Source of the DNA: Cetorhinus maximus | Lineage: Eukaryota | Length of the DNA: 64,000 nucleotides | Direction: 5' to 3' | NCBI RefSeq assembly: GCF_964194155.1 | Contig: NW_027596508.1 | Span: 62,001 to 126,000 of the forward strand | Shown: piece after piece, positions 7,102-59,970 of the stretch | Position numbering within the stretch: the stretch's first letter is position 1 | How the letters are laid out: every line of letters begins with the position of its first letter | The notes under the pieces: model-generated | Told to the model about the DNA's origin: nothing | The model's database searches: none | What the model saw: the letters and a program-made list of their open reading frames with translations, nothing else | Translations under genes and position numbers: made by a program

Positions 7102-7462
<361 letters not shown>

Positions 7463-19756: not shown

Positions 19757-20134
19757 TTACTTGGAGCTGGTGTACTTGGTCACCGCCTTTGTCCCTTCCG
19801 ACACGGCGTGCTTGGCCAGTTCCCCGGGCAGCAGCAGGCGCACGGCGGTCTGGATCTCCCGGGAGCTGATGGTGCTGCGCTTGTTGTAATGGGCCAGGCG
19901 GGAAGCCTCACCCGCGATGCGCTCGAAAATATCGCTCACGAACGAGTTCATGATGCTCATGGCCTTGGAGGAGATGCCGGTGTCGGGATGAACCTGCTTC
20001 ATCACTTTGTAGATGTAGATGGCGTAACTCTCCTTCCTCGACTTTCGCCGCTTCTTGCCGCCCTTTCCTGCCGGTTTACTCACCGCTTTCTTGGCGCCCT
20101 TCTTAGCAACTGGTTTCTTCTTCTCATCAACCAT
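19757..20134 (-). CDS. H2B: Histone H2B, replication-dependent (125 aa, [13 protein letters not shown]...KYTSSK)
   Basis: Complete ORF from ATG 20134; stem-loop; TATA, octamer-like and CCAAT elements upstream. The ORF-track start at 20254 is spurious. Confidence 0.97.
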
Positions 20135-20184
20135 CTTCAATCTCAATTTCAGACACTGAAATAAACCAAACCCCTTCCGTCCGC

Positions 20185-20996: not shown

Positions 20997-21371
20997 ATAG
21001 TTGATGAGAAGAAACCAGCTCCCAAAAAGGGAGCCAAGAAAGCCTTAAAGAAACCGGTAGCGAAGGGGGGCAAGAAGCGGCGAAAGTCGAGGAAGGAGAG
21101 TTACGCCATCTACATCTACAAAGTGATGAAGCAGGTTCACCCCGACACCGGCATCTCCTCCAAGGCCATGAGCATCATGAACTCGTTCGTGAACGATATT
21201 TTCGAGCGCATCGCGGGTGAGGCTTCCCGCCTGGCCCATTACAACAAGCGCAGCACCATCAGCTCCCGGGAGATCCAGACCGCCGTGCGCCTGCTGCTGC
21301 CCGGGGAACTGGCCAAACACGCCGTGTCGGAAGGGACAAAGGCGGTGACCAAGTACACCAGCTCCAAGTAA
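20997..21371 (+). pseudogene. H2B: Histone H2B with lost start codon (ATG>ATA); remaining frame open
   Basis: ATA GTT GAT GAG AAG AAA CCA... reads in frame to TAA 21371; TATTTAA 20944-20950; octamer altered to ATTTACAT. Confidence 0.88.
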
Positions 21372-22527: not shown

Positions 22528-22929
<402 letters not shown>

Positions 22930-23649: not shown

Positions 23650-23970
<321 letters not shown>

Positions 23971-57146: not shown

Positions 57147-57344
<198 letters not shown>

Positions 57345-57378
57345 ACAACTTTACCCTTTCTACCAAACACACAACAAA

Positions 57379-57394
57379 GGCTCTTTTAAGAGCC
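57379..57394 (+). terminator. Histone 3' stem-loop
   Basis: GGCTCTTTTAAGAGCC-ACCCA. Confidence 0.95.
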
Positions 57395-57449
57395 ACCCAC
57401 CGTCTCACAGAGAGAGCAGAGACCTCGGAACGCGAGGTGGGATGTGCGT

Positions 57450-57558
57450 GTGTTTGATTGGAATTCTCAATTTGGGCTCCAGCCAATTACTGTTCGGGGC
57501 GGTTCCTCACACAGTTTAAAAATGCGGATTGTAGGCCAGACTGTAATCGGTTCAGAAA
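57450..57558 (+). promoter_or_regulatory. H3 promoter
   Basis: ATTGG 57457-57461, CCAAT 57483-57487, GGGGCGG 57496-57502, TTTAAAAA 57515-57522. Confidence 0.65.
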
Positions 57559-57963
57559 ATGGTCAGGACCAAGCAAACACCGCGCAAATCGACTGGAGGG
57601 AAAGCTCCCCGCAAACAGCTGGCTACCAAAGCGGCCCGGAAGAGCGCTCGAGCCACGGGCGGAGTGAAGAAGCCTCATCGCTACGAACCCGGCACTGTGG
57701 CTCTGAGGGAGATCCGCCGCTACCAGAGGTCCGAGCTGCTAATTCGCAAATTGGCTTTCCAGCGCCTGGTGCGAGAGATCGCTCAGGACTTTAGCGTCTT
57801 GCTCGCCCAGGGCTCGGCCGTCATGGCCCTGCAGGAGGCCAGCGAGGCTTACCTGGTGGGGCTCTTTGAGGAAGCCAAACTGTGCGCCATCCACGCCAAG
57901 CGAGTTACCATCATGCCCGAAGACATCCAGCTGGCCCGCCGCATCCGCGGGGAACGCGCCTAA
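57559..57963 (+). CDS. H3: Divergent H3.2-derived histone H3 (134 aa); variant gene or in-frame pseudogene
   Basis: Open ATG-TAA frame; 15 substitutions and 2 single-codon deletions versus canonical H3.2; intact stem-loop and HDE. Confidence 0.8.
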
Positions 57964-57992
57964 AACCCGGCTTAAGCACCAAACACAACAAC

Positions 57993-58008
57993 GGCTCTTT
58001 TAAGAGCC
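57993..58008 (+). terminator. Histone 3' stem-loop with consensus-like HDE (GAAAGAGCTG 58024-58033)
   Basis: GGCTCTTTTAAGAGCC. Confidence 0.95.
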
Positions 58009-58513
58009 ACTAAATCAAATAATGAAAGAGCTGTGACCGGCGTTTAGAACAGAAATTAATTCGGCCGCTCAGACTCGAATCTCGTAAGTAATCGGCATAG
58101 AATTTAAACCGTCCCACCCCCATGGGAAGTAAAGAAAATGCTGCCTATATGAGCAATTGAGATCGGAGACAGCCCTTTTCACAGACTGCGTGCGGGCAGA
58201 TGCAATTGAATCAGATCCTGTCCGGGCGCAACACTCGCTGTGAAACCCGCTTGTGAATTTCCTCATGTCGCTCTCGTAATTGCATCGAATAGATTCGGTA
58301 TTTTTGACATTGATGGATTTACAGAATGATTGTTTCTGATATCCTGTCCATAAATAGTTCACTAACAAAAGCGGGAGATGTGTGAGCAGAGAAACAGCGC
58401 TATCCAGAGCGGGAACTGAAAACACAAGATAACAAATCAGAAACAGATAAATCCACCGTTACAATAACTCCATCTCTGACCCTCCTGACAGTGAGCAGCC
58501 CTTTCCCGTGAGT

Positions 58514-58529
58514 GGCTCTGGAAAGAGCC
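58514..58529 (-). terminator. Histone 3' stem-loop with variant loop (TTCC)
   Basis: Minus strand GGCTCTTTCCAGAGCC-ACTCA; HDE GAAAGGGCTG only 8 nt downstream. Confidence 0.85.
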
Positions 58530-58559
58530 TTTGGGTTATTAGATCACATTGTGGCCGCT

Positions 58560-59970
<1,411 letters not shown>

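Follow-up and report, generated by a model that had tools for sequence, protein, structure and literature searches.

In the analysed window, a stretch of 64,000 nucleotides from the basking shark Cetorhinus maximus, an H3-type open reading frame of 134 amino acids lies on the forward strand at 57559–57963. The frame is free of stop codons, matches the Pfam Histone domain with 130 bits and has H3.2 as its best PDB match. Compared to canonical H3 of the same genome it carries the 15 substitutions A1V, A7P, P30R, R42E, K56R, P66A, T80S, D81V, R83L, F84A, S86G, D106E, T107A, N108K and K122E together with two one-codon deletions, delT58 and delK79. This list agrees exactly with an earlier reading of the bare sequence, hereafter the original prediction; the position of the loop-1 gap depends on the alignment, and three alignments disagree about it. 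Identity to canonical H3.2 amounts to 87.5%. The 133 residues behind the methionine hold 17 differences from a near-invariant protein of 135 residues. K4, K9, K27, K36, C110 and H113, which were said to be kept, are all present, and the claimed abundance of CpGs was confirmed with an observed/expected ratio of 0.88 vs 0.75–0.78 in canonical copies. No disabling lesion is found in the coding sequence of the window copy. An assembly error is ruled out for this frame, its 134 residues recurring identically at seven places in the genome.

Upstream, the promoter core is preserved at 57457–57522 (+) with ATTGG (57457–57461), CCAAT (57483–57487), a GC box (57496–57502) and the TATA-like TTTAAAA (57515–57521), and from CCAAT to the TATA-like box the stretch hardly differs from the cluster's canonical H3 promoters. 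The 3' end exhibits a canonical histone stem-loop at 57993–58008 (+, Rfam RF00032), with the Rfam Histone3 match extending over 57988–58034 at 39.3 bits, and a histone downstream element (HDE, the U7 site) at 58024–58033 (+). The stem-loop is without variation in all 16 variant copies assessed. Being intronless, situated within a cluster of histone genes and equipped with stem-loop and HDE, the gene has the structure of a replication-dependent histone gene, and its message, if transcribed, would be an S-phase, non-polyadenylated one. Behind the TATA-like box, 31 bp are missing in all 17 copies of the family (junction at 57544–57545, +). From this box to the ATG, all 17 variant copies measure 44 nt, compared to 73–75 nt in the nine canonical copies in which the box was located. 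Judged from the usual TATA-to-start spacing, this deletion presumably took away the normal cap site along with most of the 5' UTR. The intact expression signals previously claimed stand for the stem-loop, HDE, CCAAT, GC box and TTTAAAA, whereas the deletion between TATA and ATG had been overlooked. Stem-loop and promoter boxes are also no proof of function, because they are retained, together with the HDE, in two broken copies assessed (subfamily D, see below), and a broken H4 gene keeps its stem-loop as well.

This H4 pseudogene, in which only codons 63–103 are recognisable, sits directly upstream of the H3 variant at 57219–57419 (+); its 5' part is broken and its stem-loop passes Rfam. Downstream follows the H2A of the same duplicated block at 58514–58949 (−), with an altered C-terminus, several substitutions and the stem-loop loop TTCC instead of TTTC. 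TTCC occurs in 17 of 17 blocks vs TTTC in the nine of nine canonical genes located (11 loci given); the third U of the loop is an SLBP contact. In one copy the H2A start codon is lost. The C-terminus of this H2A subtype reads TSAERSQRK in all 17 blocks, and an H4 form marked by four identical substitutions is shared by blocks from two subfamilies. Divergent H2A and H4 runs are found further on, on C450 past the window end (L063) and at L058 and L062. Near-canonical histone genes elsewhere in the window are a 5'-incomplete H2B, two H2B, an H2A and an H4 (7105–7380, 19760–20137, 21060–21368, 22537–22929, 23650–23961).

To count the family, the genome of C. maximus was searched at the protein level (150 of 413 candidates scored, 14 of them full-length variant copies) and with a pattern spanning the T58 deletion, which located 17 copies in concordance with a search by the 3' flank. 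The remaining scored H3 candidates matched at 88–90%, and 29 remaining candidates extracted as full frames were canonical or near-canonical H3 of 136 amino acids. The 17 copies, 14 full-length and three broken, are distributed over C32 (15), C450 (one) and C678 (one) and form the subfamilies A (n=8, including the window copy), B (n=4), C (n=2) and D (n=3). None of the D copies is intact, two having been disrupted by a reverse-transcriptase element and the third by a 47-bp deletion; in addition, one B copy has lost CCAAT and GC box and one A copy its stop codon. Broken orthologues had been named beforehand as evidence against the variant, and this applies in part, to three of 17 paralogues. Nonsense codons are absent from all 17 copies and both white-shark proteins described below. 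K122E, K56R, S86G and A7P differ from subfamily to subfamily. Variant copies have multiplied within duplicated blocks of 9–20 kb or more; the eight A copies have 9–20 kb of flank in common at 99.4–99.7%, so they are not independent but recent block duplicates. A sequencing or assembly artefact might be suspected from the C450 and C678 copies, which lie on small contigs and could duplicate C32 copies. With 15 copies in four subfamilies on C32 alone and identical deletions in a second species, this explanation is exceedingly improbable and is rejected for the family; at most, the copy count would drop by two.

The element in the two D copies, at L032:2210-4617 and in L031, is a non-LTR retrotransposon with a truncated 5' end (RVT_1, zf-RVT), flanked by a 16-bp target-site duplication and Tx1-like by resemblance. 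In L032 the insert is in frame and creates an open frame of about 800 codons joining the H3 N-terminus to reverse transcriptase, and the NCBI model XP_078389063.1 (136 aa) appears to treat the insert as an intron. In copy D_18.98 neither the stem-loop nor the target-site duplication could be located, and its downstream flank rows were dropped from the alignment.

Two NCBI proteins of 134 amino acids from the white shark, Carcharodon carcharias, carry both deletions, and the gene is thus not a single-species copy, the finding that the original prediction had listed against itself. What it had described is a real multi-copy family derived from H3.2, with replication-dependent gene structure, in two shark species. 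Beyond C. maximus and C. carcharias, no relatives were found among the best 120 hits of a word-dependent search in annotated proteins. Shared by every live copy and by the two proteins of the white shark are delT58, delK79, V81 and L83 as well as the loss of P66, T80 and F84, and K4, K9, K14, K23, K27, K36 and residues 125–135 are unaltered in all aligned rows. A1V, R42E, D106E and N108K are missing from the white shark, whose proteins additionally carry T3I, L48P, E50D, E59K, R63H and Q68L and, in one case, V101E. Overall, 17–25 of 134 residues differ between the proteins of the two species. The intact frame in both is a biased observation, since only intact copies appear as proteins. The members XP_078388930.1, XP_078388946.1, XP_041037801.1 and XP_041037802.1, including paralogues from C. 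maximus, are annotated by NCBI as 'histone H3, embryonic-like', which is an automatic label. As judged from the sequences, the variant family is older than the split of the two lamniform families, which dates back tens of millions of years.

Similar to canonical H3.2, the variant is encoded in the cluster without an intron, ends in stem-loop and HDE and has A31, S87-A88-V89-M90 and S96, the residues typical of canonical H3.2. It differs by two deletions, 15 substitutions, a TATA-to-ATG distance shorter by 31 bp and a dN/dS of 0.64 vs 0.001. H3.3 is characterised by S31 and A87-A88-I89-G90, neither of which is present. cenH3 (CENP-A) proteins have a longer loop 1 and an unalignable N-terminal tail. 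The variant shares with them a divergence centred on loop 1 and changes at F84, T107 and, in the white shark, Q68; its loop 1 is, however, one residue shorter, its tail is alignable and nearly canonical, and it is a multi-copy cluster gene with a stem-loop. CENP-A was rejected as its identity on these grounds. Primate H3.Y and H3.X are not known to have deletions in the histone fold. H3.3 was rejected too, for its residues and because H3.3 genes are polyadenylated and located outside clusters (PMC4574566), unlike this stem-loop gene, and the variant is indeed, as had been proposed, neither H3.3 nor CENP-A. H3.Y and H3.X resemble it as lineage-restricted divergent H3 proteins with altered K79 region and changed R42, and were first annotated as pseudogenes; they differ in being H3.3-derived and outside the cluster, and for H3.Y protein and nucleosome are demonstrated, whereas the shark variant is known from sequence (PMC2935562, PMC5291245). 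An H3 without K79 is accordingly not new, since H3.Y alters this residue (PMC2935562). Mouse H3t is likewise a cluster-encoded variant with a stem-loop, but near-canonical and incorporated, and the distant mouse forms H3mm6-18 are likewise intact lineage-specific frames of uncertain function; 13 of 14 genes of the mouse set are H3.3-derived, in contrast to a shark family that is multi-copy, present in two species and marked by deletions (PMC4574566). Two core deletions in such a family are unusual. Among the open-licence papers and bioRxiv preprints listed, no report of a shark H3 variant was found.

Rates of evolution were estimated within C. maximus DNA by a codon model without recombination on 18 sequences (eight live variant haplotypes, three broken copies and seven canonical genes). 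The variant lineage gave a dN/dS of 0.64 compared to 0.001 for canonical H3 and hence lacks strong purifying selection of the canonical H3.2 type. Fixing the ratio at 1 cost 1.33 lnL (p about 0.10) in a test of low power with a point estimate below 1. A dN/dS near 1, likewise considered in advance as counterevidence, is thus partly what was observed: the value of 0.64, obtained from paralogues, is indistinguishable from 1. Between subfamilies 15–18 of 405 nt of coding sequence differ (10–11 for D), and the non-coding flanks differ by 1.6–4.5% upstream and 2.6–4.2% downstream. The coding sequence changes about as fast as its own non-coding flanks. Because the rate is about that of adjacent non-coding DNA, slow decay appears likelier than a working new histone, and we assign a probability of roughly 0.55 to a relaxed lamniform H3.2 paralogue that is likely decaying slowly while carried along and multiplied within duplicated histone-cluster blocks. 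The breakage of three of 17 copies, the decaying H4 and H2A neighbours and the 31-bp deletion point in the same direction. By analogy the white-shark L48P may do so too, as the change L48A at this residue kills yeast (PMC7308085, Table 2).

Tentatively, and with somewhat less likelihood than decay, the gene could instead be a lamniform H3 variant that is functional and fast-evolving, would probably serve the germline or embryo and would be expressed from the replication-dependent cluster. Its copies would turn over by birth and death like mammalian germline variants, and neutral-like rates would be compatible with function, because germline H2B variants of mammals turn over, are often pseudogenised and are in some cases positively selected (PMC8857922). 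The constancy of delT58, delK79, V81 and L83 in every live copy and the two white-shark proteins, the constant tail lysines and residues 125–135, and the retained promoter core, stem-loop and HDE argue for this possibility, and H3.Y with altered R42 and K79 offers the precedent of a real protein (PMC5291245, PMC2935562). Against it stand a dN/dS not significantly below 1 with a coding sequence as fast as its flanks, signature residues that differ across species and subfamilies, the 31 bp lost behind TATA, and relatives in two species only among the best 120 hits in annotated proteins.

The clustering of the changes had been part of the case for a variant. With the canonical gene closest to it as reference, the window copy shows eight replacement and eight silent differences in codons 56–86, and nine and two outside. 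Since 8 of 10 silent differences fall into these same codons, clustering is at least as strong for silent changes (p 1.4e-4 for a codon window picked after the fact), and by itself it no longer speaks directly for adaptation. Codons 56–86 would rather have eluded homogenisation or passed through a mutational burst. Within them pN is 0.12 and pS 0.375, a pN/pS of about 0.3 (p about 0.08), which counts for function and against decay. Where gene conversion operates, a peak of divergence can signal that selection guards a new function (PMC3924837), and a functional variant could thus be one whose codons 56–86 selection shields from conversion by canonical H3. No donor for the divergent core was found, its silent states being absent from the other H3 clusters compared (C39, C22 and small contigs). 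In the canonical H3 genes L017, L034, L042 and L043, 2–5 bases differ in codons 56–86 and 13–36 outside, so the part where the variant has diverged most coincides with the part whose silent sites are best conserved among canonical genes. Mouse H3.2 has a regulatory element in its coding region.

Of 26 amino-acid events that separate the subfamilies, about 9 (hand count, white shark as outgroup) revert to the canonical residue, where 2–3% would be expected from point mutation alone; these reversions, too, speak for function and against decay. In five of them the codon is the canonical one, consistent with short conversions from canonical genes; in the other four it is non-canonical (56, 65, 78, and 69 in B). 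Subfamily A, to which the window copy belongs, has as private differences only L65, R69 and F78, each of them the canonical residue. They were either restored by selection, in which case the protein would matter, or belong to an older core that subfamily A kept by recombination among paralogues; codons 65 and 78 are equally compatible with recombination intermediates.

For the decaying paralogue we propose the following course. An ancestral H3 gene of the cluster would have gained the two deletions and loop-1 changes before the split of basking and white shark, this H3.2 gene having lost constraint in an early lamniform. Codons 56–86 may then have no longer been homogenised with the many canonical H3 genes, the ends being still partly converted; such partial conversion of the ends and none of the middle would result in a peak of silent as well as replacement changes. 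The variant would now drift inside the duplicated blocks, the low shark mutation rate having left most frames open, and its protein would likely be poorly incorporated. Decay would be slow because this rate is low, with 7e-10 per base per generation in the epaulette shark (PMC10587355).

In-frame deletions and missing stops were part of the earlier case for function. Only 1 of 17 indels in the non-coding flank (upstream tally) is a multiple of three, which favours selection on the in-frame deletions of the variant. On the basking-shark branches about 2.3 nonsense changes would be expected (3.1–3.7% of about 67 substitutions) and none was observed (P about 0.1), in support of function. Both signs prove weak here, as 32 of 36 dispersed H2B-like copies used as neutral control (best 40 of 1175 candidates, a set leaning young and gap-poor) are intact at 2.6% divergence. 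The lesions of these presumably neutral retrocopies are two stops and six indels, four of six in frame, and their singleton changes (31 copies, with the likely source gene and four duplicates removed) show N:S of 80:31, as neutrality predicts. Neutral retrocopies hence stay open like the H3 variant. Altogether, the absent nonsense codons, the core pN/pS, the indel lengths in the flanks, the reversions, the invariant stem-loop and an imprecise dN/dS below 1 remain the points against decay.

A rather improbable alternative is that of a family functional in the lamniform ancestor, with constraint on its core while this diverged, that later lost its role and now drifts in both species. The signal of constraint is located in the old core, the younger changes outside it amount to nine replacement to two silent, and lineage-specific changes such as L48P and V101E are damaging, all of which suit such a history. 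However, stem and crown dN/dS are alike (0.64 and 0.76, no difference), and two species cannot separate it from the decaying paralogue.

If made, the protein would lack K79, as had been claimed, as well as R83, and would carry R42E. R42 contacts DNA, and R42K lowers H1 binding (PMC5291245). For a functional protein, the shorter alphaN-alpha1 linker and loop 1, the lost K79 and R83 and, in C. maximus, R42E would loosen DNA contacts, and the loss of K79 would remove the DOT1L site; the loop-1 change would be opposite in direction to that of CENP-A. A destabilisation by R42E and K122E, as first argued, is not sustained: R42E is absent from the white shark and K122E is variable, so these charge reversals are not a conserved signature, and K122E by itself is described as leaving nucleosomes stable in vitro (PMC7926236). 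Distant mouse H3 variants are described as failing to incorporate stably (PMC4574566). Monomer models were uninformative, as the variant reached pLDDT 57 with fused helices and the canonical H3 control only pLDDT 49. A lamniform-specific, multi-copy, replication-dependent H3 with two core deletions that, without K79 and R83, would form DOT1L-blind, loosened nucleosomes in germline or embryo is conceivable but the less favoured outcome. If functional, the protein would represent a naturally occurring vertebrate H3 with core deletions, bearing on the limits of change in the loop-1/H4 handshake and the K79 surface, and the first H3 variant from a cartilaginous fish within the literature reached. 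A non-functional gene would be a clear case of slow histone pseudogene decay in sharks, where open frames, in-frame indels and intact stem-loops would be weak signs of function.

The divergent H2B of the control, about 69% identical to cluster H2B, forms a dispersed family of copies of about 440 bp (L079-L114), with a further copy at L010:913-1287 (−). The dispersed copies lack the stem-loop and stop with a short A-rich tract just ahead of its position; L084 on C22 retains the stem-loop and may be the source gene. Mass retroposition of this H2B would imply its germline expression. One H2B-like copy lies head-to-head with four H3-variant copies. In the window, weak Rfam tRNA matches (42 bits) at 30518–30589 and 37575–37646 are possibly heads of tRNA-derived SINEs.
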